Below are positions 7,080 through 41,381 of a DNA stretch of 64,000 nt, piece by piece; position 1 is the first letter of the stretch; each line of letters starts with the position of its first letter. The translations under genes and the position numbers were made by a program. Below the pieces are notes generated by a model that was given only the letters and a program-made list of their open reading frames with translations, made no database searches and had not been told where the DNA came from. The DNA is from a virus (taxonomy: Duplodnaviria; Heunggongvirae; Uroviricota; Caudoviricetes): the IMG/VR virus record IMGVR_UViG_3300042348_001285, one strand, 5' to 3'.

Positions 7080-7091
7080 AGGGCCAGATAC

Positions 7092-8194: not shown

Positions 8195-8329
8195 TCAGGC
8201 CTCGCCAACGACTTTCCAGCCCTTGGGTTTCAGGCTAAGGGGACCAGTGTAGACGACTTGCTCAAGGAAACCATCGCGGTTGGTGCGCTCAAGCAGCCAC
8301 TGGCTGGAGGTGGTGGTTTTGGTGGCCAT
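8195..8329 (-). CDS. small cassette ORF (44 aa, MATKTTTSSQWLLER...)
   Basis: The cassette at 8335-8380 is followed by ATG GCC ACC. This ORF is below the track threshold. Confidence 0.4.
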   Translation of the reverse strand: MATKTTTSSQWLLERTNRDGFLEQVVYTGPLSLKPKGWKVVGEA

Positions 8330-8403
8330 TGCGGTTCGGTGGGTGACTCCCGGTTAGTGACTCTGAGATTATAGCACGGATAGGCAGGGGGGCGCAAGCC
8401 CCC

Positions 8404-8616
8404 TCAGGCAGGCATCGTGAAGTATGTATCCTCTTCGTCCCATCCTTGCTCGATAAGTTCTGCGATGCCCAGCTCCCCATCTTCCTTGGAAGGGTGCAGC
8501 CAATTCAGCTCCCAGCTCCCATCGTAGCCAACCCGGAAAGTGGCACAGACGGTACCGGGTAGGAGGTGGTAGGGGTGGCCCTCAGGGCAGTAGCAGATGG
8601 AAGGGATGGTTGCCAT
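8404..8616 (-). CDS. small cassette ORF (70 aa, begins MAT)
   Basis: Cassette at 8620-8660. Confidence 0.5.
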   Translation of the reverse strand: MATIPSICYCPEGHPYHLLPGTVCATFRVGYDGSWELNWLHPSKEDGELGIAELIEQGWDEEDTYFTMPA

Positions 8617-8700
8617 GGTGCGTTGCGGTGTCGGTTGGTGACTCTGTGATTATAGCAGGGATGGGCCAGGGAACACAAGCCCCCCCAATCCCCGTCACCC

Positions 8701-9153
8701 TCAGCCAGCAACCACAGCACCCTTGGCAACCTTACGGGGGGCACGCTTGCGGGCGGGGGCCGGTGCATCGGCGGTCACAGTGGCCTTGGTTGCCTTGGTT
8801 GCCTTGGTTGCCTTAGTCCGTTTCCGTGGTGCCGGGGCCGGTGCAGCAGCCAGCAGGGCGATAGGGCCACTTGCGGCCATCAGGACGGGAACCTCAGCGG
8901 GCACGACAATTTCCTGGAACTCAATAGCGATGCCATCGATGGCTTCAACCGTGGCCCTAGCCAGGGCAGCTAATTGGTCGTTGCGGGCATCGATTGCCTC
9001 GCGGGTTTGACAACCCAGATCATAGGCAGTGTCTGCCGTGATGGTGGCCACGGTGATGATGTAGGCGATCACAATGCCAGCAATGCGGGCAGCCTTCTCA
9101 AGGGTGGGGGCCCAATCGGCCTTCAGGATGGTTGCGATGGTGGTGGTGGCCAT
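8701..9153 (-). CDS. hypothetical protein (150 aa) with a KAT-tripeptide repeat and a basic C-terminus
   Basis: Begins MATTT. A 9-bp 'ggccttggt' DNA repeat run at 8775-8810 encodes KATKATKATKAT. Confidence 0.5.
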   Translation of the reverse strand: MATTTIATILKADWAPTLEKAARIAGIVIAYIITVATITADTAYDLGCQTREAIDARNDQLAALARATVEAIDGIAIEFQEIVVPAEVPVLMAASGPIALLAAAPAPAPRKRTKATKATKATKATVTADAPAPARKRAPRKVAKGAVVAG

Positions 9154-9200
9154 GGTGCGTTGCGGTGTCGGTTGGTTGACTCTGTAATTGTACCATACGG
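9154..9200 (-). promoter_or_regulatory. representative copy of the conserved promoter-leader cassette
   Basis: Reverse complement reads 'TGGTACAATTACAGAGTCAACCAACCGACACCGCAACGCACC ATG GCC ACC'. More than 50 near-identical copies lie between 6.3 and 31.4 kb. Confidence 0.7.
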
Positions 9201-9233
9201 CAGGCAGGGGGCGCAAGCCCCCCGTACCCGCAA

Positions 9234-9425
9234 TCACTCTGCGTCGTAACCGTCGAACCATGGGCCCCTTTGCCGTGTGCGGCGACGGGCGGTAGCACTG
9301 ATGGCGGTCTTGTAGGAAGTCTCAGGGCTTTTGCAGTGGGCTTGGGCCTCAGTCAGGGTTAGACCACGGGCAATGGTGCGATCGGGGCCGTTCATGAAGG
9401 AGCGAACGATCTTGTAGGTGGTCAT
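9234..9425 (-). CDS. small cassette ORF (63 aa)
   Basis: A TACAAT -10 box at about 9445 is followed by ATG. Confidence 0.45.
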   Translation of the reverse strand: MTTYKIVRSFMNGPDRTIARGLTLTEAQAHCKSPETSYKTAISATARRRTRQRGPWFDGYDAE

Positions 9426-9867
9426 GATGCGTTCCGGTTCGGGACCCCCATATTGTATGCCATGGGTGGCCAGGTGTCAAGGTGCCGGGTTGTTTGTTTG
9501 CATTTCGTAATAATGCTAGTGGGAGTAATACAAACGTACTAGCTTACCCGGTGAGTTTGCGCTTCGGGTGTCGCGGTCCGGTGAGTTTGCGCTTCGGGTG
9601 TCGCGGTCCGGTGAGTTTGCCGGTCGGTGAGTTTGCCGGTCGGTGAGTTAACTATCGGGTGCGATGTTACAAAACTTTACATACCGGGGCAGGGAGTTTA
9701 ACCGTAATGAGTTAGCCACCCGGTGACAACACAAAACTTAACATTCCGGTGGTAGCTTCACGGCAATGAGTTAGCCACTCGGTGTCAGCACACCATGGCA
9801 GGGGGCATGTGAAACCAGCATAAAGAAAGGCCGCCGATTGGCAGCCCTTTACTATGCGGACTTTCGT

Positions 9868-10257
9868 TCACAAAGGGTTGAGATTATCATCCACATCATC
9901 CATTCTTTCAAAGGAAGGGCAATGGAGCAGATTGCCGCTTTCCGCATACCCATCGATCACATATTGTGCGTACTGCTTAATCTTCTGCACAGCCACTTTG
10001 CTGTCTACTGTCTCCACGAACTCGCCCATGTTATAGTATGAAATCCGATCACCATTGTGGAAGTGATAAACCCTCTTTAGAATGAGGCGCATCCCGCTAA
10101 CAAAAAACTCCATATCGACTTGACATTCGTCCCCTACCCCAAAGAATACGGGAAATGTATACAAATCGTTAGGGGAGGGATTAGCCCAGGGGCTGGAATT
10201 TTCCCACTGAAGGGTAACTGAAGTCGTCCCACGAGAAATGATCGAGGAGGTGGGCAT
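9868..10257 (-). CDS. hypothetical protein (129 aa)
   Basis: Cassette at 10262-10295. Lower-GC gene body. Confidence 0.5.
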   Translation of the reverse strand: MPTSSIISRGTTSVTLQWENSSPWANPSPNDLYTFPVFFGVGDECQVDMEFFVSGMRLILKRVYHFHNGDRISYYNMGEFVETVDSKVAVQKIKQYAQYVIDGYAESGNLLHCPSFERMDDVDDNLNPL

Positions 10258-10562
10258 GGTGCGTTCCGGTTGACTCTGTAATTATAGCATGGGGCGGGAG
10301 CCTGCTGTGGGTTTCCGGGGGTTTTGTTTGCATTCCGTAATAATGCCGGGTCGGTGAGTTTGCGGTTCGGTGAGTTGACCATCGGGTGAGATGTTACAAA
10401 ACTTAACACACCGGGGCAGGGGGTTTGACCGTAATGAGTTAGCCACTCGGTGTCAACACAAAACTTAACACATCATGGCAGGGGGTTTGACCGTAATGAG
10501 TTAAACCCCCAAACAGCAAGCCCCAGCAAAGCCAGGGCAGTAGCAACAACCTGATGCAACCC

Positions 10563-10766
10563 TCAACCTCGCGCAGCCCGAGAAAAGTCCAACTCAGGGT
10601 AAACCACCAACTCCCTAGGCAGGCTGCGGGCACGACGGGCCCATGCGTACTCATCGGAATACATCGCCTCGATGCGGGCATTATCACAGGCAACGGCAGC
10701 GGTGATACGTTCACGGGCGGCAGCACGACGGTCGGAGGCGATCTGGGTGCGGTAGGTGGTGGCCAT
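10563..10766 (-). CDS. small cassette ORF (67 aa, begins MATT)
   Basis: Cassette at 10775-10800. Confidence 0.5.
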   Translation of the reverse strand: MATTYRTQIASDRRAAARERITAAVACDNARIEAMYSDEYAWARRARSLPRELVVYPELDFSRAARG

Positions 10767-10954
10767 CGGGGCGTTTCGCTTGGGACCCCCTAATTATAGC
10801 ATGGTGGGGCCTGCTGTGGGTTACTAATGGTTTTGTTTGCGTTTTGTGACAGTGCCGTGGGCAATGAGTTTGCTATCGGGTGAGTTGTAACAAAACTTTA
10901 CACACCAGGGCAATGAGTTTGACGGCAATGAGTTAAACCCCGGACAGCAAACAG

Positions 10955-10977
10955 CAAAAAACCCCAGCGAACCGGGG
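10955..10977 (-). terminator. Rho-independent terminator
   Basis: Minus strand reads CCCCGGTTCGCTGGGG followed by UUUUUU. Confidence 0.65.
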
Positions 10978-10998
10978 CGAGATGGAAAGGTCGCGGTA

Positions 10999-11307
10999 TC
11001 ATGCGCAGCGGTAGAGCCAGCCAGTCGTCGGCTGAACCGGGCTAGGATCGGCCAAAATTGAAGCCAGCCATGCCCGAACACCTTTAGCGGGGGCTTTCCA
11101 GCTATCGGCTTTCAAGATGGCCCCGTCTGTCAGGCGTATAAAGCAGTAGACCGAACGCTGCGACTCGCAGGGAACACCACTGTGGATAGGCGCCATTGAT
11201 ACCTTGGCATTGCTGCGGCCCATTTGGTAGGCGTAGGCGTAGGCGCCAGCGCTCTTACTGGTCAAAATGGCGATAAAGGCATCGATCTGGGATGTGGTGG
11301 TGGCCAT
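10999..11307 (-). CDS. hypothetical protein (102 aa) of the WKAPAKG(V/I)R family, paralogous to 30961..31365
   Basis: Begins MATTT. 'FIRLTDGAILKADSWKAPAKGVRAWL' compares with 'FVDRVTGDVYKVANWKAPAKGIRYNL' in the paralogue. Confidence 0.5.
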   Translation of the reverse strand: MATTTSQIDAFIAILTSKSAGAYAYAYQMGRSNAKVSMAPIHSGVPCESQRSVYCFIRLTDGAILKADSWKAPAKGVRAWLASILADPSPVQPTTGWLYRCA

Positions 11308-11384
11308 CGGGGCGTCTCGGGTGGGGACTCTGTAATTGTACCATGGATGGGCTAGGGAACGCAAGCCCCCTAACCCCGTGGCGG

Positions 11385-11546
11385 TCAGGCGACTCTAACG
11401 TGGAGGCCCCGAGCGATCTCTTTAAGTTCGGATTCAGTGCGGAAGATCAGCATGAGCCAGAATTCTCCGGTGACTTCAAGATTGTTGGCCCTGATGACGT
11501 TCATGATGTCGTGGCGGAGGGCTTGCTTGCGTTGGGTGGCGGTCAT
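11385..11546 (-). CDS. small cassette ORF (53 aa)
   Basis: Cassette-derived start MTATQRK. Confidence 0.4.
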   Translation of the reverse strand: MTATQRKQALRHDIMNVIRANNLEVTGEFWLMLIFRTESELKEIARGLHVRVA

Positions 11547-11596
11547 GGGTGGCTCCCGGTTGGTTGACTCTGTAATTATAGCACGGGGCCGTAGAG

Positions 11597-11830
11597 TCAG
11601 CAATAAGCGTTTAGAGATCCGTATGGATTGGACGAAAGATCGAAAAAACCCTCCCAGCTTTCTGCTTCAGCGCGTGCCATTGGCATCAATGGAGAGGGTG
11701 ACTGAGAAGTGCCCCACTGGTGGCGATCATTTGCTCTAGCGAGGTGATGGTGGTGCTTAATCCTGGAGCGTGTTTCACTCCAGTAGCAAGCGGTTCCATG
11801 AAAGTAGCCGTAGCCGGTTGCATTGGTCAT
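11597..11830 (-). CDS. small cassette ORF (77 aa) with a HHHH run
   Basis: Cassette at 11845-11880. Confidence 0.45.
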   Translation of the reverse strand: MTNATGYGYFHGTACYWSETRSRIKHHHHLARANDRHQWGTSQSPSPLMPMARAEAESWEGFFDLSSNPYGSLNAYC

Positions 11831-11971
11831 GGCGGGGCGGGTGGTGGTGGTTGGTGACAGGTGAATTGTAGCATGGGTGCCGGGGCAAAGTCAGCCCCCC
11901 TGGATTCTGCGGTAAGCACGGGGGCCCGAACGGCATCCGCCGAACAGCAACCCCCCCCCCGTTCATACCCC

Positions 11972-12259
11972 TTAAAGCCCCGCAACCCTAGCAAGCTCCT
12001 GCATGGTGCAGGGGGAAGAACCCATCAGGGGCAAGATAGCAACCTCAAAATCCGAATGCAGATTCTGCCAGCGGATAGCAGCAGCGGCGGCATCTTCGAT
12101 GGACCAGCCTTCTACGGGGCCACCCTGCAGGAACCAGCGGCGCTGATGGGCGGTGGGGGTCTCAGGCTTGACGCGAGCCCACAGGCGGTAGGTTGTTGCT
12201 GGGGCGGGGGGTTGCATCGGGGCGGGGGGTTGCATCGGGGCGGCGGTTGCAGTAGCCAT
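11972..12259 (-). CDS. small cassette ORF (95 aa, begins MATATAAPMQPPAPMQPPAP)
   Basis: The cassette and a tandem 15-bp repeat encode the duplicated PMQPPA. Confidence 0.5.
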   Translation of the reverse strand: MATATAAPMQPPAPMQPPAPATTYRLWARVKPETPTAHQRRWFLQGGPVEGWSIEDAAAAAIRWQNLHSDFEVAILPLMGSSPCTMQELARVAGL

Positions 12260-12336
12260 CGTTGCGGTGTCGGTTGGTTGACTTCGGTATTATAGCACAG
12301 GGGGCCAGAGAACACAATCCCTAACCCCCCCGGTCA

Positions 12337-12546
12337 TCAGGCGGCAGCCAGGGCCAGCCAGTCGGCGGGTAGACACGTCGGATAGGGGCAGCGGCTGGTC
12401 CAGCGGACTTCTGCCCGCAGCTCGCCGCAGTCTTCCCACATGTCAACTACTTGCCCCCGCAGGCGGTTCCAGTGGAGGACGCGACCGGCGGTGTCTTCGC
12501 CGTTGTTGGCGGGGCGGACGGTGGCTCCAATGGTGATGGTGGTCAT
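12337..12546 (-). CDS. small cassette ORF (69 aa)
   Basis: Cassette at 12560-12595. Confidence 0.45.
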   Translation of the reverse strand: MTTITIGATVRPANNGEDTAGRVLHWNRLRGQVVDMWEDCGELRAEVRWTSRCPYPTCLPADWLALAAA

Positions 12547-12887
12547 CGCTGGTTGGGGGGGGGGGTGCGTTACCCTGAAATTATAGCACAGGGCCGAGGG
12601 TGCTGGGGTTGCCGGGTGTGCCGTTGGTTTTGTTTACGTTTGGTAACAATGCCGTTGGGAGTAATGCACTTGTACTAGCTTGCCTGTGGTTTGTTTGCGC
12701 TCCGGGTGCGATGTTACAAAACTTAACATTCCGATGGCAGGAAGTTTGACGGCAAGGAGTAATACACTTGTACTAGCTTGCCCGGTAAGTCTACGCTTCG
12801 TGACGGCAGGCAAGGGGCCAACATAGTGTCAACCCCATGGCATTGTCAACCCCATGGCATTGTCAACCCCTGGGCATCGTCAACCCC

Positions 12888-13127
12888 TCAAGCAGCAGCC
12901 AAGGCATCCAGGGCGGTAGCCAGGGCAGTAGCAGGGAAATAGCGGTCCTCACCTTCGCAGATGTCAGACAGGCACCAGCGGAAGCCGTTACGGGTCGCAT
13001 CAGCGGTCAGGATGTAGTCGGCACCTTTGAAGAAGGCACGGGATCCTTCACTGAATTCCACACCGGCAGGGAGGCCTTTGCGGAGAGCAGCGTTAATCAT
13101 GGTGGATGGGGTGGTTGCCGGGCCCAT
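12888..13127 (-). CDS. small cassette ORF (79 aa)
   Basis: Cassette at 13135-13170. Confidence 0.45.
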   Translation of the reverse strand: MGPATTPSTMINAALRKGLPAGVEFSEGSRAFFKGADYILTADATRNGFRWCLSDICEGEDRYFPATALATALDALAAA

Positions 13128-13398
13128 GTTGTCGTTTGGTGCGTTACCTAGTAATTATAGCATGGGGTCGAGGGTACTGTGGGTTGCCGGTGGGTGTCGA
13201 TGGTTTTGTTTACGTTTGGTAACAATGCCGGTCAATGAGTTTGCAGTTCGGTGAGTTAACTAACGGGTGCGATGTTACAAAACTTTACATATCGGGGCAG
13301 GGAGTTTGGCGGCAATGAGTTTACTGCCAGGTGGCGACACAAAACTTAACACATTGAGGCAGGGAGTTTGACGACAAAGAGTTATCGCACCGGCCAAC

Positions 13399-13422
13399 AA
13401 AAAAAACCCCGGCGAACCGGGG
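13399..13422 (-). terminator. Rho-independent terminator (UUCG loop plus U8)
   Basis: Minus strand reads CCCCGGTTCGCCGGGG followed by UUUUUUUU. Confidence 0.75.
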
Positions 13423-13449
13423 CAGGGGCAGGGCAGTATTGGGTGGGTG

Positions 13450-13662
13450 TCAGCCTACGCCTTGTCCCCAGACGGTTAAGCAGCGGTCTCGGGCGACCCG
13501 GTAGGATTCAAGCTCCCTGCGGTTAAGATCCAACATGGGGCGATAACCGTTGATACCGGCTGCACATGCCGCTTTCCAAGCAGCCTCAGCACGGTCAATA
13601 GCACATTGGGCGATATTAGCCCAAGAATCGGCGGAGATGGTTGCGGTGGTGGTGGGAGCCAT
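13450..13662 (-). CDS. small cassette ORF (70 aa, begins MAPTTTAT)
   Basis: Cassette at 13670-13700. Confidence 0.5.
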   Translation of the reverse strand: MAPTTTATISADSWANIAQCAIDRAEAAWKAACAAGINGYRPMLDLNRRELESYRVARDRCLTVWGQGVG

Positions 13663-14281
13663 TTGCCGTTTGGTGCGGTACCCTGTAATTATAGCATGGT
13701 GCAGGGGCAATTGCGGGGTGCCGTTTGATGGCGTTTGGTAACAATGCCGTTCGAGTAGTAGGTTTGTACTAGCGGACTTCGGCGGCAATTTTCGGTTCGA
13801 ACTATCGGGTGTGATGTTACAAAACTTAACATTCCGATGGCAGTTTGACGGCAATGAGTTTACCACAGGAGTAATACAAACGTACTAGCTGACTCCGGCG
13901 GCAATTTGCGGTTGAGAGTGGTACTAACGTACTACCTAACCCGGTGTCAAAATGGGGGCCACGAGGATCGGACTCGTCTTCTATTTGTTATGAGCAAATT
14001 GCATTCACCAGATTGCTAGACCCCCGTGAGTATTACATTACCCTGGCAAGTAAGTTCCGGTCACTATTCCTAGCAGCCATGGCAACCAGCACAGGCAAGC
14101 AAGCCCCTGTAGGCATGGTGCGTCCCAACCGTGCAATGAGTTTGGGGTCCTCACCAGGGAGAACGACCGGTTTCCATGGGCCCGGTGGAAAGGTGGTTTC
14201 GGTGGTCATAAGCCTGGGGGGTGACAGGTTGATTATAGCATAGGGGCCAACACAGTGTCAACCCCTCGGCAACCCCGACCA

Positions 14282-14540
14282 TCAATAACCCAGCCAAACC
14301 AGGGCCTGACCAGCATGGTTAGGGTTGACTTCAGGGTGGGAATCAGCCTTAAGGTCCGCAACATTTGCCTCATGCTGCCGTAGAAGCCGCCCAAGCTCGC
14401 GGTCAGTCAGGATCAGAGACTCGCTGCGGTCCCAAGCTGCGGCCAGAACGCTAGCGGCATAATTGTCGGGATCTTGACCCAGTGCATAATCAAAGCAGTC
14501 GGCCCACTGCTCGTCGGTGAAGGCAACCTGCTCGGCGCTG
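14282..14540 (-). CDS. cassette ORF whose conserved ATG position is lost; start uncertain
   Basis: The cassette 'TGCTACAATTACAGAGTCACTACCTGGACCGCCACC' is present, but I find no in-frame ATG before the body (...HIISAEQVAFTDEQW...). This is either a non-canonical start or a decayed gene. Confidence 0.25.
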
Positions 14541-14689
14541 ATGATGTGGCTGGTAGCGGTGACAGCGGTTGCCGTGGGTGGCGGTCCAGGTAGTGACTCT
14601 GTAATTGTAGCACACGGGGGTAGGGTGCCGTGGGTTCTGTTACGCTTCGTGATGATGGGCACGGCAAGGGGCCAACACAGTGTCAACCA

Positions 14690-14869
14690 TCACCCGATGC
14701 CTTCCCGATCGTATTCCCCGTAAGTCGATTCATATACGGCACGGTCATCGTAGAATTCAGCCTCAGCATTAGGATCGCCGTCAGCCAGTGCTTGGAGGAA
14801 TTTTAGGGTATCTTCGTCAGTGGGGGTAGCGGCGAAGGCGGCGGTAATGGTTGCTGATGTGGGGGCCAT
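14690..14869 (-). CDS. small cassette ORF (59 aa, MAPTSATITAAF...)
   Basis: A TACAAT box at about 14895 is followed by ATG GCC CCC. The ORF is below the track threshold. Confidence 0.4.
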   Translation of the reverse strand: MAPTSATITAAFAATPTDEDTLKFLQALADGDPNAEAEFYDDRAVYESTYGEYDREGIG

Positions 14870-15065
14870 TTTTTCTCCGGGGTGTCCGTCTATTGTAGCA
14901 TAGTGCTGGGGGGGGGGTTGGGGTTTGCGGGTCGGTGTTGTGCTTCGGGTGTTAGGCTTCGGTGAGGTTGCCGGTCGGTGAGTTTGCAGTCCGGTAAGTT
15001 GACTATCGGGTGCGATGTTACAAAACTTAACATTTCATTGGCATCGAGTTTGTGGTATGAGTTAC

Positions 15066-15372
15066 TTAAATGTAATTATAGGGTGCTTTTTGCGAGTAAT
15101 GTAGAATTCCGGGGTGTGTTTTCGGAGTAATGTAGAACGCCCCAAAATAAAAACCCAAAATTCAATCCTTGAGATCGATTGCAGGGGAACGGAGTTACTC
15201 CTAAAAAAATTAAAAATTTTAGGACCTTTTCAAAAACAGCATGAAAAATTCTATATTTGAATGCAAATTCTGCACCCTACTACTATAATCGCATATAAAT
15301 TATTTAATAGAAGACTCTTATCAATGAGTTATGATACATAAGAGTTCCTTATCAATAGGTAATAGCAGTAAA
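15066..15372. repeat. complex intergenic module, copy A (iterons, hairpins, AT-rich tail with IHF-like site)
   Basis: Carries 2x 'GGGTGCTTTTTGCGAGTAATGTAGAA'-type iterons, the hairpin TCCTAAAA-N10-TTTTAGGA, and TTGAAT...TATAAT. Related to the copies at 17.1, 19.9, 21.5, 22.2, 25.2, 25.7 and 29.4 kb. Confidence 0.8.
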
Positions 15373-15430
15373 GCAACAAAAAAAAGGGAGGGTTACCCCT
15401 ACCCATTCTTTGCGCTAAGTTTATCGCCAA

Positions 15431-15781
15431 TCAATCATTCTTGGCACCCCATGCACGCAACCGGCTAATCGCCTCCTCTATGCTGCTGGCATTAGACTTA
15501 CGGAATTTGGCCGTTTTGCTATAGGAGAACATTTCGATCTTCCCACCCCCGACGGAAAACATTGCGTAGCGGGAATTGTGGAAAATTCCGTTAATCCATT
15601 CTTCCTTGGGGTCTAGGGATACCTTGACGATTAGGGAAGCGTTTTGCTCACCGCCAAGTGTGGACCTTTGCACAGAAGAAACCGGGAAGGTGGCATTAAG
15701 GGCAGCAGCCAGGGTCTCACGGTCGGCTTCGGTCGGGATGAAGGCGGTTGCAAGGGTTGCGGTAGTTGCCGGGGCCATCAT
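15431..15781 (-). CDS. hypothetical protein (116 aa, begins MMAPATTAT)
   Basis: Cassette at 15790-15820. Confidence 0.5.
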   Translation of the reverse strand: MMAPATTATLATAFIPTEADRETLAAALNATFPVSSVQRSTLGGEQNASLIVKVSLDPKEEWINGIFHNSRYAMFSVGGGKIEMFSYSKTAKFRKSNASSIEEAISRLRAWGAKND

Positions 15782-15940
15782 TGCCGGTGGTTGGTTGGCT
15801 TCGTAATTATAGCACAGGGCCGAGGGTACTGTGGGTGATGTTACAAGGAGTGACAACAGGCACGGCAGGGTGCCGTCACGGCCTGCAACAACAGGCAAGG
15901 CAGGGGCTACCGGCAGGCAACCCCCCCCCCTGGCCATCAC

Positions 15941-16237
15941 TCACACAGCCGGAACCTGGCAGCCGGCAGCGATCACCCCTTTGCCTTCCATCTCATCCAG
16001 CAGGGTGACGTAAGCGGCAGCGATGGCGTTCTTGGTGGCACGGCCGGTTAGCTCAACCCGGAAACTCCGGCAGCTGAAGGGTAGGCATGTGAACGTGCTG
16101 TAGCCGGTGCTGGTCTCTACAGTGCCCTCACTGGCAGTGACCCTGGCAGGGCGGCCATTGGGTTTGTAGTAGGAGACTTGGAAAACCTTGCCGGGCTGGT
16201 CAAGGCTGTTCACGTAGAAGGAATTGGGGGTTGCCAT
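15941..16237 (-). CDS. hypothetical protein (98 aa, begins MATPNS)
   Basis: Cassette at 16245-16285. Confidence 0.5.
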   Translation of the reverse strand: MATPNSFYVNSLDQPGKVFQVSYYKPNGRPARVTASEGTVETSTGYSTFTCLPFSCRSFRVELTGRATKNAIAAAYVTLLDEMEGKGVIAAGCQVPAV

Positions 16238-16326
16238 TGCGGTTCGGGGTGGTTGCCGTTGGTTGGTTGCTCTGTGATTATAGAATGGAATGGAAGGGGG
16301 CGCAAGCCCCCCTCAACTCCTAGCAA

Positions 16327-16578
16327 TCACACAGCAGGCAGGTAAATTTCCAATGTGTAGGTAACCTCAGCCTCATTATAGGCAGCCAGCGTATCGGCTA
16401 GTTCCCCAAGCGTCACATAGTCGCTGTAGTCTCCATCGTCAATCAGGAATTCCATCTCATCGCCTTCGGCGGGTTCTTCCGATAGGTAGGGGGCACAGAA
16501 GGGGGCCAGTCCGGTGGGCATGGCGACGGGCAATGCAGCGAGGATTTCAGCTAGGGTAGGGGCGGTTGCGGTAGCCAT
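16327..16578 (-). CDS. small acidic cassette ORF (83 aa, begins MATATAPT)
   Basis: Cassette at 16585-16620. Confidence 0.5.
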   Translation of the reverse strand: MATATAPTLAEILAALPVAMPTGLAPFCAPYLSEEPAEGDEMEFLIDDGDYSDYVTLGELADTLAAYNEAEVTYTLEIYLPAV

Positions 16579-16771
16579 GGTGGTCTCGGTGGGTGACGAC
16601 AGGTAAATTGTAGCACACGGGGTCCTGGAACGCAAGGCCCCCCCTACTATTAGTTGCCAACTTTCGGTAGTATAGTCCCATACGTCAAATAGCCATACCT
16701 TTCGATGCCGTACTTGTGCAAAATATGCACACTGGACCATGGTACACCTTGTCCCCAAGTACCTGACTGAC

Positions 16772-16888
16772 TCATACGCTCAAAAGCACATTCAACGCTG
16801 TTACGCAGCCAGGAATGATCAATACGGGATGCTGATGCCGCTTGGTTGCTGCGGTAGTTGCGGTACTTGGGGGGGTGGGGAATGCCAT
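16772..16888 (-). CDS. tiny cassette ORF (38 aa, MAFPTPPSTATTAATKRHQHPVLIIPG...)
   Basis: Cassette at 16895-16925. The remainder of track ORF 16772..17197 is read-through. Confidence 0.3.
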   Translation of the reverse strand: MAFPTPPSTATTAATKRHQHPVLIIPGCVTALNVLLSV

Positions 16889-17027
16889 TGTTGCCGGTGG
16901 TTGGTTGGCTCCGTAATTATAGCACATTGCCTCGGGGGTTGGGGCCCCGGATTGCTGACTCCCAAGGTGTGGTGGACAGTTTGTAAACTGTCTATTTGAC
17001 TTCGTGAGTTTGACTTTTAGGGTTTGA

Positions 17028-17318
17028 TTCTGGGGTGTGTTTTCGGGGTCAATGTGGAATCTCAGAGTGCTTTTTGCAGGTAATGCAGAAACCCCAATTT
17101 GAAAAGTTCGAAAGTCAACCGCTGAGATCGACTGCAGGGGAACGGAGTTACTCCTAAAAAAATTAAAAATTTTAGGACCTACTGAAAAACCATCCAAAAA
17201 ATTCTACATTTGAATGCAAATTCTGCACCCTACTATCATATACTCGCGTAAAAATTATTTAATAGAAGACTCTTATCTAAATGTCTAGACAGATAAGTAA
17301 TTCTTATCAATCTAATCC
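17028..17318. repeat. complex intergenic module, copy B
   Basis: Same iteron, hairpin and AT-rich architecture as copy A. Confidence 0.8.
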
Positions 17319-17449
17319 CCCATCAAACCGCAATGTTGTGGGCTATTCGAGGATGCTAACCGGAGTCTCACACCAAATAGCAAAGGGGGCGATGCCGTAG
17401 CACCAACCCCCAAACATTAAACTAAGGTCAATCTAAGGCCAAACCAAGG

Positions 17450-17638
17450 TCAAACATAGAGACGAACCTGAGCCAGGAAGCACTCCCGGTGTTGCTTGCG
17501 AAGGATGGTGCGGATTCGCTTAGCCTGCTCAAGACTCCATACCCGGTTGCCCCCTACGGGCTCAGACCATGGTTTGCGGGTGATTTCCTGAACAGTGTAG
17601 AAGATTCGGGTTTTCTTGGTTGCGGTTGCGGTGGCCAT
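17450..17638 (-). CDS. small basic cassette ORF (62 aa, begins MATATATKK)
   Basis: Cassette at 17645-17690. Confidence 0.5.
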   Translation of the reverse strand: MATATATKKTRIFYTVQEITRKPWSEPVGGNRVWSLEQAKRIRTILRKQHRECFLAQVRLYV

Positions 17639-17809
17639 TGGTGCGTGTCGGTTGGTTGGTGACAAGTGAATTGTAGCACGGTCGCCGGGGGCTGTCAATG
17701 CTTTTGGGGTAGGGACCCGGCTTCCAAATTTTCGGAGGGGGCGCAAGCCCCTTGCCATCTGGTCATCATTCCCTAGGTATCAATGCCCTTGCAGTAGGAT
17801 CCAGTTCTC

Positions 17810-17880
17810 AAAATTTTCGGAGGGGGCGTTAGCCCCCGACTGGTTCGGGCGCCGTAGGCGGTAACCCGAACCCAATCCCA
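17810..17880. repeat. 71-bp GC-rich structured element, copy 1 (second copy at 39816..39885)
   Basis: Near-identical 'AATTTTCGGAGGGGGCGTTAGCCCCCGACTGGTTCGGGCGCCGTAGGCGGTAACCCGAACCCAATCCCA'. It holds hairpin GGGGGC-GTTA-GCCCCC and a perfect 8-bp stem GGTTCGGG/CCCGAACC that encloses CGCC-GTAG-GCGG. Confidence 0.75.
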
Positions 17881-17930
17881 GGGCATCAATCCCAGGGCAT
17901 CAATCCCAGGGCATCAATCCCATGGGCAAA
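17876..17930. repeat. microsatellite (gggcatcaatccca)x4 directly after the structured element
   Basis: Direct tandem reading. Confidence 0.85.
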
Positions 17931-18012
17931 GTTGCCAGTGGCTGATAACAATGGTAGTATAACAAAAAAGGCCAGGAAGCACAAGCCCCCTGACCATGGT
18001 AGCTAATCCCTA

Positions 18013-18315
18013 TCAGGAACACTGATTTAATGGGGTAGGATCAAAGTGAATATCCCGCTCGATGCGTAGTCCAGCTGGGCCCCGAGTAGCTTCTAGGTCC
18101 CTGAGGTCGAAGTACCCAAGTTCCCGCTCCAGACCGATAACCAACCCAAAGCATAACCCTGTCGCAGGATCCATCTCCGTGAGATACCATGTCCAGTTTG
18201 ACCAGGGGGTGAAAAATTTGGTATAGGCGATTGCTGCCATACCTTTACCGTCCTGTGCGTACAGGGCAGGAACCTTGGTGGCGATTGCCTTGGTTAGTAG
18301 CTTGGTGTTGGCCAT
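18013..18315 (-). CDS. hypothetical protein (100 aa, begins MANT)
   Basis: Cassette at 18320-18360. Confidence 0.5.
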   Translation of the reverse strand: MANTKLLTKAIATKVPALYAQDGKGMAAIAYTKFFTPWSNWTWYLTEMDPATGLCFGLVIGLERELGYFDLRDLEATRGPAGLRIERDIHFDPTPLNQCS

Positions 18316-18695
18316 GGTTGCCGGTGGGTGACGACAGGGTAATCATAGCACAGGCAGGAAGGGGGGGCGCAAGCCCCTTGCCCCCCGGTTTTGTCCCTCA
18401 GTCTGGAATTGATTGGCCGTAGCGGAGGGGTTCGGCTTCTTTCATTACCTAATAGCTGCATGAATGTTTAATAGCCCCATGGTAAACCACGCTCACATTC
18501 TCATATATTCTTTGTTGAAAACAAAGACTTGGCATCATTCATGCAGGTTTTCGGCTCTTACTTCACCTCATTTAACTCTCGCTGAGACAATGCGAGTAGC
18601 CCCGTTGACTTTGCGGTTTGGGTGGTGGTGGTGGGTGACTTCGGTAGTATAGCACTAATGGGAAGGGAACGCAAGCCCCCCCGACATGCCAATAA

Positions 18696-18869
18696 TCACT
18701 TGCTATCGGTCACTTCCCAAGCAGTGATTTCTTGGTCTACCAAGTTGCCTTGACCGGGATGCGGAAAGAAGTTGTAGTCCATATCGCACAGGGCATCTTC
18801 CATGTTCACACCCTCTTTAAGGTCAAAGGTGACCTTCACAGTGACGGTGGCGGTGACTTTGCGGCTCAT
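18696..18869 (-). CDS. small cassette ORF (57 aa) behind two tandem cassettes
   Basis: Two promoter cassettes at 18895-18910 and 18945-18970 have no ORF between them. The Met sits at 18869. Confidence 0.4.
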   Translation of the reverse strand: MSRKVTATVTVKVTFDLKEGVNMEDALCDMDYNFFPHPGQGNLVDQEITAWEVTDSK

Positions 18870-18999
18870 GGCGGTTCGGTGGTTGGTGACAGGGTAATCA
18901 TAGCACGGGCAGGCAGGGGGGCAAGCCCCCTCAACCGCCCGACAAGTTGACTTCGGTATTATAGCACAGGTAGGCAGGCAGGTAGGCAGGCAGGCAGGG

Positions 19000-19248
19000 T
19001 CACTCCTCCCACAGTGGGCCAGCCGACATTGCGCCAACGGGGTCACCTAAGTTTTCTGCGCTAACCGGGACGGCGGCAACATCATAGCTGGGGTGGATTT
19101 CGCCGGCTGCATTACATACCCAGCAATCGACCGTCCAAAAGCGGCCCGTGTAAATCGGGTTATAGCAATCATACTCTGGACGGTTTTCATCGTGCGGAGC
19201 ATCAGCCTGATAGATCAAGCGAGCGGAAACGGTTTTAGCGTCAGCCAT
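19000..19248 (-). CDS. small Cys/Trp-containing cassette ORF (82 aa, begins MADAKT)
   Basis: A variant cassette with a TAATAAT -10 box and a C-run leader lies at 19250-19290. Confidence 0.45.
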   Translation of the reverse strand: MADAKTVSARLIYQADAPHDENRPEYDCYNPIYTGRFWTVDCWVCNAAGEIHPSYDVAAVPVSAENLGDPVGAMSAGPLWEE

Positions 19249-19291
19249 GGTTGGGGGGGGGTGGCGGTTGGTTGGTGTTGTCGAGTAATTA

Positions 19292-19582
19292 TTAGCGTTT
19301 GGCAAGTTTGCCAGTGGCCAGCATTCCATCACCTTGGCCGCGACAATTAAAAACACGACCATCAGGCAAGCGCACAACAAAGGAATACATCCTTGTTGCG
19401 TAAGGGCCGGTACGCCATGATCCAGTTACGGCACCAGTCCCTATTTGATTACCATGCCAATCCGTAAAGGTCCAATGAGAAGTCTGGAAGAAACCTTTTA
19501 CGTTTGACCCATTGGCTGGACGCTTGGCGTAACAAGCAATGCTGTCATTAGCCTTACAATTGGTTTCAACTAAAGTGACCAT
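19292..19582 (-). CDS. hypothetical protein (96 aa)
   Basis: Cassette at 19630-19660. Confidence 0.45.
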   Translation of the reverse strand: MVTLVETNCKANDSIACYAKRPANGSNVKGFFQTSHWTFTDWHGNQIGTGAVTGSWRTGPYATRMYSFVVRLPDGRVFNCRGQGDGMLATGKLAKR

Positions 19583-19744
19583 TGCATAATCCGGCTATCT
19601 GCCGGTGGGAGGAGGGGGCCGGGTTTGTCCCGATGGGTGAATTATAGCACATTGTCGGTGGTGCTGGGGGTCCAGGATTGTTGACTCCTGGGGTGTGGTG
19701 GACAGTTTGTAAACTGTCTATTTGCGTTGGGAGTTATGACTCTG

Positions 19745-20060
19745 GGGTTGGGTGCCGAGGGTGCATTTTGTGAGTAATGTGGAACCTTAGGGTGCGTTTT
19801 CAGGGCAATGTGGAAACTCTGAAATCAAAAACCGAAAATTCAATCCCTGAGATCCGTTGCAGGGCAACGGAGTTACTCCTAAAATTTTTGAATTTTTTAG
19901 GACCTAGTGAAAAATGAGTAAGAAAATTCTACATTTGAATGCATATTCTGCACCCTACTATCATATACTCGCGTAAAAATTATTTATAGTACACTCTTAT
20001 CTAAATATCTAAACAGATAAGAAATTCTTATCCATAAGCACAATCAATGAGTTAAGAACC
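19745..20060. repeat. complex intergenic module, copy C
   Basis: Iterons 'GGGTGCATTTTGTGAGTAATGTGGAA' and 'GGGTGCGTTTTCAGGGCAATGTGGAA'. Also the hairpins, a palindrome CTTATCT-N12-AGATAAG, and 'TTATCCATA', which is DnaA-box-like. Confidence 0.8.
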
Positions 20061-20065
20061 AGGAG

Positions 20066-20093
20066 ACAAAAAAAGGGGGGGCAACCCCCCCCC
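20066..20093 (-). terminator. Rho-independent terminator G7-CAA-C9 plus U7
   Basis: Minus strand reads GGGGGGGGGUUGCCCCCCC followed by UUUUUUU, just after the stop at 20099. Confidence 0.8.
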
Positions 20094-20098
20094 GACCA

Positions 20099-20530
20099 TC
20101 ACAGCTCCTGAACTTCAACCCCGATGCGATCTGCTGCAGCAAGCAGAAGTTCCCGGTAGGAGTCGAACTTGTTGGGAGTTGGCACCCAGAACCTCAAGAC
20201 ACCTGGATCACTAGGAATACCACTGGACCACCCCTGGTAATCGGGAGTTGGGATACCGTCGCTTACTACAACGATTCCATCAGTTGGGTTGTAAGAAATA
20301 TTCGTCTTCACCATTCGGCCAGCAATATAATCGCCACGCAATTCGATAAAGCCATCATTGGCATAAGTAGGGTAATTGTGAACTTGGTCCAGGATTGTAA
20401 GCTCATTGAGACCACGAACAGCCTGAAGGAAACCCATACCAGTTTCAGTGCCACATGCTTCATAAGCAATTAGCAGGTATGTTGCAGCGAGTTTGGCAGT
20501 TTGTGACGGGTCGGATACTTGGAATTTCAT
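20099..20530 (-). CDS. hypothetical protein (143 aa)
   Basis: Intact ORF. Confidence 0.5.
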   Translation of the reverse strand: MKFQVSDPSQTAKLAATYLLIAYEACGTETGMGFLQAVRGLNELTILDQVHNYPTYANDGFIELRGDYIAGRMVKTNISYNPTDGIVVVSDGIPTPDYQGWSSGIPSDPGVLRFWVPTPNKFDSYRELLLAAADRIGVEVQEL

Positions 20531-20591
20531 GGAGTTTGAGAGTGTGTGGTTACAGAGTAGATGGGCCCAGATCGCAACCCCTGACTAACAA

Positions 20592-20789
20592 TCAAGTAGC
20601 CGCCAACGCAGCTTCAGCCTCGACAATACGGGCAGCTTTGTTGTGTGCCATTTCAGCCTGGAGTGCCTTAAGGAGGTCCGTAGATGCTTTCAAGTCCTCA
20701 GCACCGATGACTCCTTGATTGTAAAGGTCGATAGCACCCCCTGCGGCGAAGTGGGAGCGATAGGCTCGTTGGTAACGTGTTTGGGCCAT
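20592..20789 (-). CDS. small helical cassette ORF (65 aa, begins MAQTRYQRAYR)
   Basis: Cassette at 20795-20840. Confidence 0.45.
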   Translation of the reverse strand: MAQTRYQRAYRSHFAAGGAIDLYNQGVIGAEDLKASTDLLKALQAEMAHNKAARIVEAEAALAAT

Positions 20790-20915
20790 TTTGCTGTGGG
20801 GCGGTTGCCCTCGGTTGGTTGTTTGGTGATGGGTGAATTGTAGCATGGTGCCACTGGTTCCGTCAACCCCCTGGATTCTGCGGCAGGAAGGGGACCCGGC
20901 AGGCAAGGACTCCCC

Positions 20916-21116
20916 TCAGTAAGCCCCCAGGGCAATAGGAGAGCTGAAGGTACCATTCCCGTACTGGAAGATAGCATAGAGCTTACGCCCCCTGTGGCGC
21001 TTCACTACATAACGTGTACGGGATTCTTTGATACCACCAAAGCATTCAGCTTCAAACTGTCGGGTACTTACGACGTTGTAGGTGATGCTGTCGATTGTGA
21101 GGGTTGCTGGGGTCAT
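20916..21116 (-). CDS. small cassette ORF (66 aa)
   Basis: Cassette at 21125-21160. Confidence 0.45.
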   Translation of the reverse strand: MTPATLTIDSITYNVVSTRQFEAECFGGIKESRTRYVVKRHRGRKLYAIFQYGNGTFSSPIALGAY

Positions 21117-21439
21117 CGTTGCCGTTTGGTGCGGTTGACTCTGAAATTATAGCACGGTTGCTGGGTCCTGTCGATGCCTTCGTATTGTTGCCTATGGGTC
21201 GTGGTCTCATTGGTCTCAGTTGGGTATCAAGGTGAAATTGCCGGGCAGTGAGTTTGCCGGTCGGTGAGTTGACTATCGGGTGCGGTGTTACAAAACTTAA
21301 CATTTTGGCGACAATTCGCGGCCCAGTGAGTTTACCATCGGGGACAACACAAAACTTAACATTTTATTGTCAATGAGTTTGATGCAATAGTTCCCTATTA
21401 TGGGGGAATTGTGGCTACTTTTTTATTCATTGCCCATTG

Positions 21440-21724: not shown

Positions 21725-22050
21725 TGGACCCGAGTAGTAAACAACTGGGCGTGGTTCCACCAGTCTTAGTTAAGTATCGCAATGAGTCTACATCGAGTAG
21801 TTTACAGTTGGCATCAGTCCCAACAGTCTCGTTTCAGTCCCACAATGAGACCCACCCAAGTAGTAAACAACTGGGATACAGTCCCAACAGTCTCGTTTCA
21901 GTCCCACAATGAGACCCACCCAAGTAGTAAACAACTGGGATACAGTCCCAACAGTCTCGTTTCAGTCCCACAATGAGACCCACCCAAGTAGTAAACAACT
22001 GGGATACGGTCTCAACAGTTTCGTTTCAGTCCCATAATGAGACCACACCT
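21725..22050. repeat. tandem array of a 64-bp unit (about 5 units, 3 near-perfect)
   Basis: Unit 'cccaacagtctcgtttcagtcccacaatgagacccacccaagtagtaaacaactgggatacagt'. The array is sandwiched between modules D and E. Confidence 0.85.
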
Positions 22051-25330: not shown

Positions 25331-25537
25331 TTGTTGGTGAGTTGAATAGTTGACGACTGGGTGTGATCTCGTCGGTCTCAGTTGAGTATCGGAATGAGTT
25401 CACATCGAGTAGTTTACAGTTGGGATACAGTCTCGTTTCAGCCCCACAATAAGACTCATCCAAATAGTCAACAACTAGGGTACGGTCTCAACAGTCTCAC
25501 TTCAATCTCACAATGAGATCACACTTCAAGAGCAAAC
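25331..25537. repeat. degenerate copies of the 64-bp unit between modules F and G
   Basis: Reads '...gatacagtctcgtttcagccccacaataagactcatccaaatagtcaacaactagggtacggtctcaacagtctcac...'. Confidence 0.6.
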
Positions 25538-39408: not shown

Positions 39409-39499
39409 GAACCCTCCGGGGTTGTGATTTGAGGTTGAACAGGCACACACTATAGCACAATGCTAAGGCCCTGTCAATGCGGTCGGGTGTTGTTGGCTG

Positions 39500-39795
39500 T
39501 GTGGGGTTGGTGAGTATTTATACCTAGTGCTTGGCTAGGATGAGAGCCACTAGAAGTCGTTGACTCCTATAAGTTGGTGAGTATTTATACCTAGTGCTGA
39601 TTAGGTTAGGGGCCGTCTAGTGTTGTTGACTCCTGGGGCCCGTAAGTATTTATACTTAGTGCTGGTTAGGTTAGGGGCCGTTTTGTGTCGTTGACTCCTG
39701 AGGGGTCCGTAAGTATTTATACTCACTGCCGGCTAAGTCGGAGTCCCCCCGGTGTCGTTGGCTCCACACAAGTCAGTAAGTATTTATACTCACTG
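39500..39795. repeat. tandem array of about 65 bp, five units, each carrying AAGTATTTATAC (TATAAATA on the minus strand)
   Basis: Units begin at about 39512, 39578, 39642, 39708 and 39772. The inter-unit segments are mutually similar, so this is not CRISPR. Confidence 0.85.
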
Positions 39796-39815: not shown

Positions 39816-39885
39816 AATTTTCGGAGGGGGCGTTAGCCCCCGACTGGTTCGGGCGCCGTAGGCGGTATCCCGAACCCAATCCCAA
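39816..39885. repeat. 71-bp GC-rich structured element, copy 2
   Basis: Near-identical to 17810..17880. Confidence 0.75.
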
Positions 39886-39927
39886 GGCAATCAACCCTCA
39901 GGCAACTAACCCATCGATCACCAACCC

Positions 39928-39990
39928 ATCGGCAACCATCGGCAACCATCGGCAACCATCGGCAACCATCGGCAACCATCGGCAACCACC
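39928..39990. repeat. microsatellite (ggcaaccatc)x6
   Basis: Direct tandem reading. It sits directly after the structured element, as the microsatellite does at copy 1. Confidence 0.85.
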
Positions 39991-39995
39991 AACAA

Positions 39996-41381
39996 TCACA
40001 AAACCTCAGGTAAAACATAGCCTTTAATCTTCGCAACCCGCTTATTCAAAATAGCCCAATCATCCAAATCCTTAAACCTAAAGTGAGCAGACCCCTTCAG
40101 GAATACCTTAAACTCAAAGAATCCCCAATCTTGCCATACCCCTGGTTCCAATCGGTCTTTGCCACAAACAGGGTCCTTAACGGCATCATAATCTTTGCCA
40201 GTCAAAGTAGATAGGACCTTAATTAGATCCGCCACCTTATGGTAATTAGACTGATAAGATTTAACAGATACAGTGCCCCCACTCCAATCTTTCTCCGCAA
40301 AGTACGGCAAAATAAACTTCTTACCGAATAAATACTGCTCATTGGTTTTCCACCCTTCTACACCATGCCTATTATCGTGATAATGCTTAGTGAAAGCATC
40401 GAAAACTTGCTCTACAGTCCTATCTAATCGCTGATCCTGAGTTGCAATAACGATCTCTAACATCCTGTAGATATTCCGCATTGTAAACGGAACCCTACTT
40501 TGTTGCTCTACAAACCTGTTAATATCTTTAAGCAATTCCGTAGTTGCTAATTTCTCCATTCCCATCTTACTAAATACAAATTCCCACGCTGATCTTTGCA
40601 GGTCTATTTGAAAGTCATTCCTTGCTTTTGCCTGGCCATTTTCCGTACAGACAAATGCGATATTTGATTTGTAAAATCCTTTCAGAACCCTATTTATACC
40701 AACTGCAGACTCAATTTGTTTGTCATAAATCCTGCAGGCTTCCACGTATCGGTTGACAATATCCCTAACGAAATTGTAAGGAATAAGCCCCTCCCCTTCA
40801 GCTTCAATTGCATCGGGACCCATAAAGAACCCATTAAACTCATCATCAGAATCCGGGGCAGGCTTCCTTAGGGTAACTAATCCTATTGCCACATCCGTAG
40901 AACGCTCCGCACCCTTAAAGACCTCACCCAAGTTCTCAACATACCCGTAGTTCCTAATTAGGGACCCCAATTGCCTACGAGCCAAGGAATATTCATTCCG
41001 CACAGTCTCCCAATTACATAAAGACACAATTTGACACCCTGGTGGTGCAATCTCGAAGGCATAGTTAATATGTTTTTCGTCCCCACTGAAAGGGGGATTC
41101 ATTATGATGAAGTCCACATGGCTTATTGCTTCCGGTTTGATATCTAGGAAGTCGGTGCCAATTAGTTTACATTGTTTTGTTGTCAGGATTGCCCTGAGGT
41201 TATCATCAATTTCACACGCCAGAACTTCACTAGCCCCATATTGCAAACAACCTTCTACCAAATTGCCAGAACCTGCGGATGGCTCCAGAATGACTTTATC
41301 AGCCAAATCGAATGGCCCCAGCATTGCGCCTATAACTTGGTCGGGAGTCGGATAATAGTCCTTGTTGTTATAGGATGGCAT
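39996..41381 (-). CDS. DNA methyltransferase domain protein (gamma-class N6-adenine/N4-cytosine type) with an about 300-aa C-terminal extension
   Basis: Motif I 'ILEPSAGSGNL' precedes motif IV 'IIMNPPF'. There is an N-terminal 'YYPTP'. I see no cognate restriction enzyme. Confidence 0.6.
   Translation of the reverse strand: MPSYNNKDYYPTPDQVIGAMLGPFDLADKVILEPSAGSGNLVEGCLQYGASEVLACEIDDNLRAILTTKQCKLIGTDFLDIKPEAISHVDFIIMNPPFSGDEKHINYAFEIAPPGCQIVSLCNWETVRNEYSLARRQLGSLIRNYGYVENLGEVFKGAERSTDVAIGLVTLRKPAPDSDDEFNGFFMGPDAIEAEGEGLIPYNFVRDIVNRYVEACRIYDKQIESAVGINRVLKGFYKSNIAFVCTENGQAKARNDFQIDLQRSAWEFVFSKMGMEKLATTELLKDINRFVEQQSRVPFTMRNIYRMLEIVIATQDQRLDRTVEQVFDAFTKHYHDNRHGVEGWKTNEQYLFGKKFILPYFAEKDWSGGTVSVKSYQSNYHKVADLIKVLSTLTGKDYDAVKDPVCGKDRLEPGVWQDWGFFEFKVFLKGSAHFRFKDLDDWAILNKRVAKIKGYVLPEVL

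Follow-up and report, generated by a model that had tools for sequence, protein, structure and literature searches.

The closest described counterparts of the element analysed here are the PeSLs of T4-type phages, whose hyperplastic regions carry sigma70 promoters and polyG/polyC stem-loops as terminator/promoter cassettes (PMC2839356; PMC4122927). These regions are rich in small ORFans, their intergenic spacers hold the sigma70-consensus early promoters together with the stem-loops, and the motifs mark the limits of the indels and replacements by which close relatives differ (Arbiol et al. 2010, PMC2839356; Comeau et al. 2014, PMC4122927). A reporter assay in phi1/RB49 demonstrated attenuation of transcription by PeSLs, with polyG/polyC stem-loops reducing expression to an extent comparable to rrnB T1, and a strong reduction being seen even where the stem-loop lacks the classic U tract; recombination between PeSLs, moreover, produces indels (PMC2839356). 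Another point of comparison is the putL/putR pair of phage HK022, sites of ~70 nt consisting of two adjacent stem-loops with bulges and present in two similar copies per genome (PMC9378689).

Here, we describe a duplicated double stem-loop in a 64,000-nt stretch of phage DNA (the window), examining its fold, its conservation, its surroundings and its distribution among relatives. Most likely, the element serves to stop or insulate transcription and does not represent a novel type of RNA gene. The reading that we tentatively favour, as a possibility, is that it forms the stem-loop part of a PeSL-like cassette that would attenuate leftward transcripts and protect their 3' ends, and that was duplicated by recombination.

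Genomic setting

The window looks like part of a jumbo phage genome, from an uncultured freshwater phage. Every sizeable ORF is encoded on the minus strand; among the products are CysRS, a DnaN-type clamp, a pentapeptide protein, a DUF4942 methyltransferase-like protein, a DUF2958 protein, a CCA-adding enzyme and a thymidylate kinase. No DNA similarity to cultured phages was found; the best matches of the clamp are from cyanophages, at 26-31% identity, and the closest relative is a 279-kb IMG/VR contig. Unlike the phages in which PeSLs were described, this one has a DnaN-type clamp and no close cultured relative, and it may lie outside the T4 type.

Transcription signals are strongly polarized: the minus strand has 69 extended -10 motifs and the plus strand 6. 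At about 10 of the minus-strand promoters, the -35 position is covered by a GGGGGC-TTGC-GCCCCC stem-loop. The window also contains at least 60 families of direct repeats, mostly promoter and intergenic modules. Between 6 and 26 kb, matches to a terminator-like hairpin followed by a T run number 38 against 22 expected, the best-scoring ones being on the minus strand; at 26-46 kb such matches show no enrichment over shuffled sequence. Canonical terminators are used elsewhere in the phage genome.

Several further features of these spacers were observed. Promoter density is extreme on the minus strand at 6000-30000, and the loop of the promoter-fused stem-loop itself supplies the TTGC -35 (e.g. 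at 8376, 9195, 11343, 16615, 17964, 18350 and 18905). In the GC-richer left part (6914-21320), the intergenic spacers contain at least 10 occurrences of the motif GATGTTACAAAACTTAACAT, an inverted repeat of the form ATGTTA...TAACAT that is probably bound by a regulator. Most ATG starts are preceded by C/A-rich leaders (CAACCAACC...) without a Shine-Dalgarno sequence (e.g. 43693, 47419 and 56876), GGAGG being present before a few genes (e.g. the start near 39409). These leaders hint that the host, which may be a cyanobacterium, initiates translation without relying on Shine-Dalgarno sequences.

A duplicated double stem-loop

A pattern search of the window with the 69-mer AATTTTCGGAGGGGGCGTTAGCCCCCGACTGGTTCGGGCGCCGTAGGCGGTA(A/T)CCCGAACCCAATCCCA returns exactly two matches, both on the plus strand (copies 1 and 2 in Table 1), with none expected in shuffled sequence (100 shuffles). 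The two copies differ by a single base, an A/T difference within a bulge, and lie 22,004 bp apart, in 2-kb windows with a GC content of 0.52 and 0.45. An earlier note on this DNA had described a duplicated GC-rich element whose copies stand 22 kb apart in regions of different composition, and both points are confirmed. It had also reported a third, partial copy, which exists, lying about 4 nt from where it had been placed. This copy contains the H1 module only, reads GGGGC-GCAA-GCCCC on the plus strand, carries the flank AAATTTTCGGA as in the full element, stands in tandem with copy 1, and corresponds to the H1-only allele of relatives (see below). The strand given for the element in Table 1 is that of the genes, which may also be the strand on which the element acts.

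Table 1. Coordinates of the element, its parts and the neighbouring features in the window
Feature	Position	Strand	Remarks
Full element, copy 1	17812..17880	- (gene strand)	Covariance model 103.5 bits
Copy 1, 3' flank UCCGAAAAUU	17812-17821
Copy 1, hairpin H1	17822-17837
Copy 1, hairpin H2	17842-17872		8-bp stem, 4-nt bulge and CGCC/GGCG triloop hairpin
Copy 1, CAATCCCA tail	17873-17880		Overlaps tandem array
Full element, copy 2	39816..39884	- (gene strand)	Covariance model 103.8 bits
Copy 2, hairpin H1	39826-39841
Copy 2, hairpin H2	39846-39876
Partial copy, H1 module only	17727..17757	-	Covariance model 21.8 bits
Array (GGGCATCAATCCCA) x3.9, locus 1	17873..17928	.	TRF; last unit overlaps end of element
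Arrays, locus 2	39886..39988	.	Degenerate 15-nt-period array 39886-39938, then (GGCAACCATC) x6.3 at 39926-39988 (TRF)
Composite of intrinsic terminator and extended -10	17956..17995	-	Terminator 17995→17970 (T run after); extended -10 TGTTATACT 17964→17956
Sigma70-type promoter TTGACA-17-TGcTACAAT	17670..17698	-	Promoter of 62-aa gene 17453-17638; downstream of element
DUF2958 gene	18013..18315	-	Upstream of locus 1
DUF4942 / DNA methyltransferase-like gene	39996..41381	-	Array and element follow its stop, locus 2
Region downstream of copy 2	39449..39795	-	Five 65-67-bp-spaced AGTGAGTATAAATACTTACT-type boxes 39513-39792; promoter 39477→39449

Either strand of the element forms two hairpins: H1, with a 6-bp GGGGGC/GCCCCC stem and a tetraloop, and H2, whose 8-bp stem encloses a small hairpin. 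The folding energy is -36 to -38 kcal/mol (z -2.1 to -2.5 against shuffles). H1 has the form GGGGGC-N4-GCCCCC, that is, a polyG tract followed by a polyC tract in a stable stem-loop. The earlier note's fold stands for H1 and the 8-bp stem; the inner hairpin that it drew as CGCC-GUAG-GCGG does not, because GCGG is not complementary to CGCC, and the actual arrangement is a CGCC-GUA-GGCG triloop followed by a 4-nt bulge. Ranked by folding energy among all 50-nt minus-strand windows, the windows holding the element come third and fourth (-28.1 and -26.8), and in the 26-46 kb region the element is the strongest minus-strand structure found.

Other structural and coding identities were considered for the same stretch. 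An outer helix GAUUGG/CCAGUC, which contains an invariant U.G pair, is doubtful: its 5' strand is the last array unit, and one relative (L119) alters both sides without compensation. A minus-strand G-quadruplex (GGG-ATT-GGG-TTC-GGG plus the GGG of the array) was rejected because L001, L011, L099 and L101 break the middle G run yet keep the hairpins. A coding role was likewise set aside, as the ORFs crossing the element (e.g. 17450-17758 in the window and 240-644 in L011) run through a promoter and the conservation lacks codon periodicity. A tRNA-like or tmRNA-like identity was also rejected, ARAGORN finding only tRNA-Met and tRNA-Ser, both away from the element.

Distribution among relatives

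Exact-pattern scans detect the H1 module in ten metagenome stretches, nine of which are freshwater relatives and one an unrelated bacterial-type terminator. The 279-kb IMG/VR contig contains two copies of the module in these scans, bacterial and archaeal genomes contain no exact copies, and degenerate pattern scans of IMG/VR gave only chance matches, which the covariance model rejected. The model itself, applied to the window and to a set of fetched loci, adds no copies to these. Protein-anchored look-ups, which are independent of the element's sequence, place the element downstream of a 78%-identical methyltransferase homologue (L099/L100) and upstream of homologues of the 62-aa protein (79-92% identical), and find none downstream of methyltransferase loci at 38-54% identity. 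One methyltransferase homologue (54% identity) is labelled as coming from a Cyanobacteriota MAG. From the scans, the look-ups and the covariance model together, the element is therefore confined to one phage clade and two orthologous loci, and the search for further copies proposed in the earlier note yields none beyond these in the window, the 279-kb contig (by exact-pattern scans) or the other collections.

The relatives differ in structure at locus 1. Locus 2 always carries the full element, while locus 1 occurs as H1 only (L002, L015, L103 and L114-L116), as the partial and full copies in tandem (the window, L017 and L112), or, as a third allele, as the full element. The A/T bulge polymorphism is common to both loci. 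In H1-only alleles (L103 831-913 and L002 1141-1185), H2 is replaced by another, less conserved inverted repeat, GGTAACC...GGTTAC (GGTTATAACC), so that a second hairpin of one kind or another may accompany H1 in every module.

Selection and strand

Among five locus-2 orthologues, 3 of the 69 columns of the element vary, compared with 42 of 158 third codon positions in the adjacent gene (p=4.5e-5); in the same set, 57 of 277 columns are variable in the neighbouring repeat region and 20 of 46 in the array. After correction for ascertainment, in which positions fixed by the search pattern are removed, 3 of 44 columns are variable (p=0.004). Compared with L099, whose methyltransferase is 78% identical in amino acids, third-position identity is 54% and element identity 84.5%, and the differing columns fall at 2 of 36 paired and 9 of 35 unpaired positions (p=0.024). 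Contigs whose downstream protein is just 82% identical have the element unchanged at 69 of 69 positions. Loops and unpaired flanks are also nearly invariant within the close clade; the invariance of H1 and the flank is partly due to the search pattern, and protein-anchored orthologues show it too. Strong selection, which had been offered as one explanation for the identity of the copies, is thus supported, both by the contrast in variable columns and by the persistence of the element in protein-anchored orthologues, and at the level of sequence these comparisons show purifying selection acting on the stems.

Covariation is less informative. The 12 distinct sequences contain one compensatory pair, G-C to A-U, with A.C intermediates (G.U on the plus strand), and the signal is neither significant nor decisive, because a single pair is involved and 181 of 500 shuffles do as well. 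Rfam offers no match either: a tRNA alone reaches the gathering threshold in the window, and permissive scans of both loci give chance-level hits or none. The earlier suggestion of an ncRNA or a ribozyme-like motif accordingly finds no specific evidence in the empty Rfam result and the single covarying pair.

The substitutions bear on which strand is functional. Each of the four one-sided stem changes leaves G.U when read on the plus strand and A.C when read on the minus strand; paired cells amount to 100% and 97.2%, respectively. This pattern weakly favours the plus strand, but with about four substitution events and a background C>T bias of about 60% on that strand it is not significant. A functional plus-strand transcript, antisense to all genes, or a small RNA carrying the hairpins would suit these wobble-compatible changes. 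It would also suit the H1 loops, which read GNNA/GNRA on that strand (GUUA, GUAA, GCAA and GCUA), and a weak promoter-like site (TCCACA-16-TATACT, 39763-39790) that lies just upstream of copy 2 and has a similar counterpart in L099. We regard such a molecule as very unlikely, since extended -10 motifs are scarce on the plus strand, locus 1 has no plausible plus-strand promoter, no terminator follows the element on that strand, the handful of substitutions is subject to the bias just described, and the U.G pair that never varies in the possible outer helix speaks for the minus strand.

Anatomy of the two loci

On the gene strand, the order at both loci and in the relatives is gene stop, array, H2-H1 and next sigma70 promoter. 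At locus 2, the stop of the methyltransferase-like gene (39996) is followed by the arrays, H2, H1, UCCGAAAAUU and a U-rich stretch, beyond which lie five near-palindromic TATAAATAC boxes, the promoter and the next gene. At locus 1, the DUF2958 gene is followed by a terminator fused to an extended -10, the array, H2, H1 and the partial H1, and then by the promoter and the 62-aa gene. The terminator/-10 composite, which is conserved in relatives as TGCTATACT, is upstream of both array and element. Relatives carry one or two small genes between this terminator/promoter and the array, so that the element again comes after a gene; the locus 1 of the window is without that small gene. The stop codon upstream of the element therefore belongs to the methyltransferase-like gene at locus 2 and, in relatives, to small genes at locus 1. 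The distance from H1 to the -35 downstream of it is about 30 nt at locus 1; at locus 2 the element lies about 340 nt from the nearest sigma70 promoter, which is again on its downstream side.

The boxes at locus 2 belong to a wider set. The near-palindromic sequence RGTATTTATRCYYA, which appears on the gene strand as AGTGAGTATAAATACTTACT, has 13 occurrences where 0.27 would be expected, at 39513-39792 and also at 22448, 35794, 35928, 42376, 42988, 43835, 47514 and 47817. It reads TATAAATA, resembling the T4 late promoter. It may function as an operator or a phage-specific promoter, or the boxes may form an origin-like iteron cluster; the tandem copy number differs between relatives.

With a stable, GC-rich hairpin pair after a stop codon and before the next promoter, the element resembles intrinsic terminators and 3' stabilizing hairpins. 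Unlike these, it has no U run directly after the stem, and its sequence, loops included, is far more conserved than usual. A terminator scan flags neither copy: the tail after H1 is UCCGAAAAUU, and the U run at locus 2 starts only about 13 nt downstream of H1. The PeSLs are similar in combining sigma70-type promoters with polyG/polyC stem-loops in the spacers of a hyperplastic region rich in small ORFans and in delimiting the indels and replacements between close relatives, and differ in that the H1 described here stands at the above distances from its promoters and in that their description includes neither a conserved second hairpin nor adjoining hypervariable arrays.

The PeSL-like organization of the genome, the fit of H1 and a promoter-bounded indel near locus 2 (described below) together lead us to read the element as a cassette stem-loop. 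By this account, a conserved double stem-loop, H2 then H1 on the gene strand, would sit in the spacer between leftward transcription units, H1 being a probable member of the genome's polyG/polyC stem-loop family that accompanies sigma70-type early promoters. In the minus-strand transcript, the two stable hairpins would attenuate or terminate read-through from the upstream gene and would also protect the 3' end of the upstream mRNA, leaving the next promoter insulated. We infer this terminator or insulator activity by comparison with the PeSLs; against it, a canonical terminator is already present upstream of the element at locus 1, and the loops and flanks are conserved beyond what a generic terminator needs.

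The conservation of H2, loops included, suggests specific recognition. On such a view the element would be a cis-acting regulatory RNA bound by RNA polymerase or by a phage or host protein, not a passive terminator hairpin; it might promote processive antitermination as put does, or might serve in RNase processing or in stability. In outline the element is like HK022 put, as both are about 70 nt long, comprise two adjacent stem-loops (here one of them bulged), occur at two places per genome as similar copies (PMC9378689) and lie in the direction of early transcription. The near-invariant loops and unpaired flanks of the close clade point the same way, as do the candidate promoter TGTTATACT just upstream of the element at locus 1 and the many terminators downstream of it at 6-16 kb. 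The put-like placement of early promoter, element and terminators is thereby compatible with locus 1 and is not evident at locus 2, downstream of which terminator-like sites are not enriched. We nevertheless consider a regulatory RNA unlikely. The best match of covariance model R1 in the HK022 genome scores 7.2 bits (E=2.5), with no sequence or model similarity to put, and Rfam gives no match. Unlike put, the element follows genes and is found neither just downstream of early promoters nor at operon heads, and one copy is dispensable in some genomes, H2 being missing from locus 1 in L002, L015, L103 and L114. Furthermore, nearly every gene has its own promoter, so that read-through is not obviously needed and there is little call for antitermination.

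It is quite unlikely, too, that the element is an undescribed phage cis-regulatory RNA or single-stranded DNA structure specifically recognized by RNA polymerase or a phage protein. Such an element might serve as an antiterminator, anti-pausing or processing signal, and array length might tune its activity in the manner of a contingency locus.

Arrays and recombination

The earlier note had each copy immediately followed by a short tandem repeat of its own. This is correct for locus 1, where the array adjoins the element directly; at locus 2, the degenerate 15-nt-period array intervenes. Nor are the two arrays unrelated microsatellites, as both, to judge directly from the sequences, look like descendants of one GGCAWCAAYCCCA-type unit, the last copy of which overlaps the CAATCCCA end of the element. 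Array length does vary between contigs, as the note had proposed to check. At locus 2 the window and L093 have 6 units each and L094 has 2, the flanks being identical; the locus-1 array has 3 full units in the window and 2 in L097 (L097 and L094 being on one ENA contig) and from 2 to at least 8 across relatives, with more distant relatives having 0 to at least 8 units or different units, and short-read assembly artefacts may lie behind these copy-number differences.

Tandem arrays are common across the window, with 62 TRF rows, and some of them are coding. In the CysRS gene, a 15-nt unit repeated x5.6 in frame (44221-44304) encodes (GISRH)-like repeats and has TGGGATT in common with the intergenic arrays, and an in-frame 12-nt unit x5.2 at 58183-58244 encodes (GGAD)n. 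A 459-aa ORF has a stretch of 36 nt exactly duplicated at its 5' end (50068-50139). The hyperplastic region contains a 64-bp tandem repeat x3.7 (97% matches) at 21815-22049, with a related copy at 25419-25537.

The relatives are mosaics in which cassette indels are bounded by promoter repeats. For example, a cassette of ~270 bp, consisting of a promoter and a small ORF, is present between 39471 and 39472 in L001, L014 and L018 and absent from the window and L020, with the -35 hexamer repeat TGTCAA/TGTCTA on both sides, an arrangement that recombination between promoters would produce. In L105 (element at 1-56) and L119 (element at 437-507), the element and the 61-aa gene, at 1001-1186 in both, are separated by one or two further small genes, another cassette insertion beside the element.

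The structural polymorphism at locus 1 and the shuffling of cassettes between relatives make recombination or gene conversion, one of the origins proposed earlier for the near-identical copies, plausible. In the cassette reading, two copies exist because short shared modules and adjoining arrays are substrates for recombination. Homologous and slipped recombination at these sites would have copied H2 into locus 1 or deleted it there, and the same process would have given rise to the partial-plus-full tandem.

Alternatively, the element might act as DNA, as a hairpin or cruciform that binds protein or as a recombination site marking cassette junctions, its conservation being kept by that role or by frequent exchange between co-circulating phages. 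The indels, the tandem duplication and the presence or absence of H2 all lie at or beside the element, and the same A/T bulge polymorphism is found at both loci. Array copy number differs between otherwise identical contigs, which would fit replication stalling or slippage at a stable hairpin, and the substitution patterns choose no RNA strand clearly. The contrast between paired and unpaired positions is non-discriminating here, because any hairpin, RNA or DNA, fits it. Action at the DNA level is likewise unlikely in our judgement: no recombinase, integrase or nuclease gene was identified beside either locus, and homogenization alone would not account for the conservation of the stems relative to L099.

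Recent transposition, which the earlier note had also raised, draws on the presence of near-identical copies 22 kb apart in regions that differ in composition. A small non-autonomous mobile element, MITE-like or REP-like, is nonetheless most improbable. All relatives have the element at the same two orthologous loci and none turned up elsewhere in the window, in the other collections or, by exact-pattern scans only, in the 279-kb IMG/VR contig, the flanks contain neither terminal inverted repeats nor target-site duplications, and no transposase gene is nearby; a MITE identity was rejected in view of the missing repeats and duplications and of the lack of dispersed copies. The REP/BIME elements of enterobacteria are imperfect palindromes in the spacers of co-directional genes, have been linked to mRNA 3' stabilization and genome rearrangement, and occur in hundreds of copies together with an associated RAYT transposase. 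The element resembles them in being made of imperfect palindromes between co-directional genes and differs in occupying two loci per genome with no RAYT-type gene nearby.

Implications for jumbo phage biology

What emerges is a genuine structural element, kept by selection in a narrow clade of phages. In kind it belongs with the intergenic stem-loop cassettes of phages, which are known in outline; the conserved second hairpin H2 and the hypervariable arrays are new features. A strongly constrained structure of 70 nt offers a concrete target for experiments, and a stable hairpin beside fast-changing arrays would lend itself to studies of how repeats become unstable next to hairpins in phage genomes. 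If the conservation reflects specific recognition, the element would represent a new phage regulatory RNA. If the cassette reading is true, the PeSL principle, by which short stem-loop/promoter modules control early transcription and at the same time serve as recombination handles for cassette shuffling, would reach an unrelated, uncultured lineage of freshwater jumbo phages.
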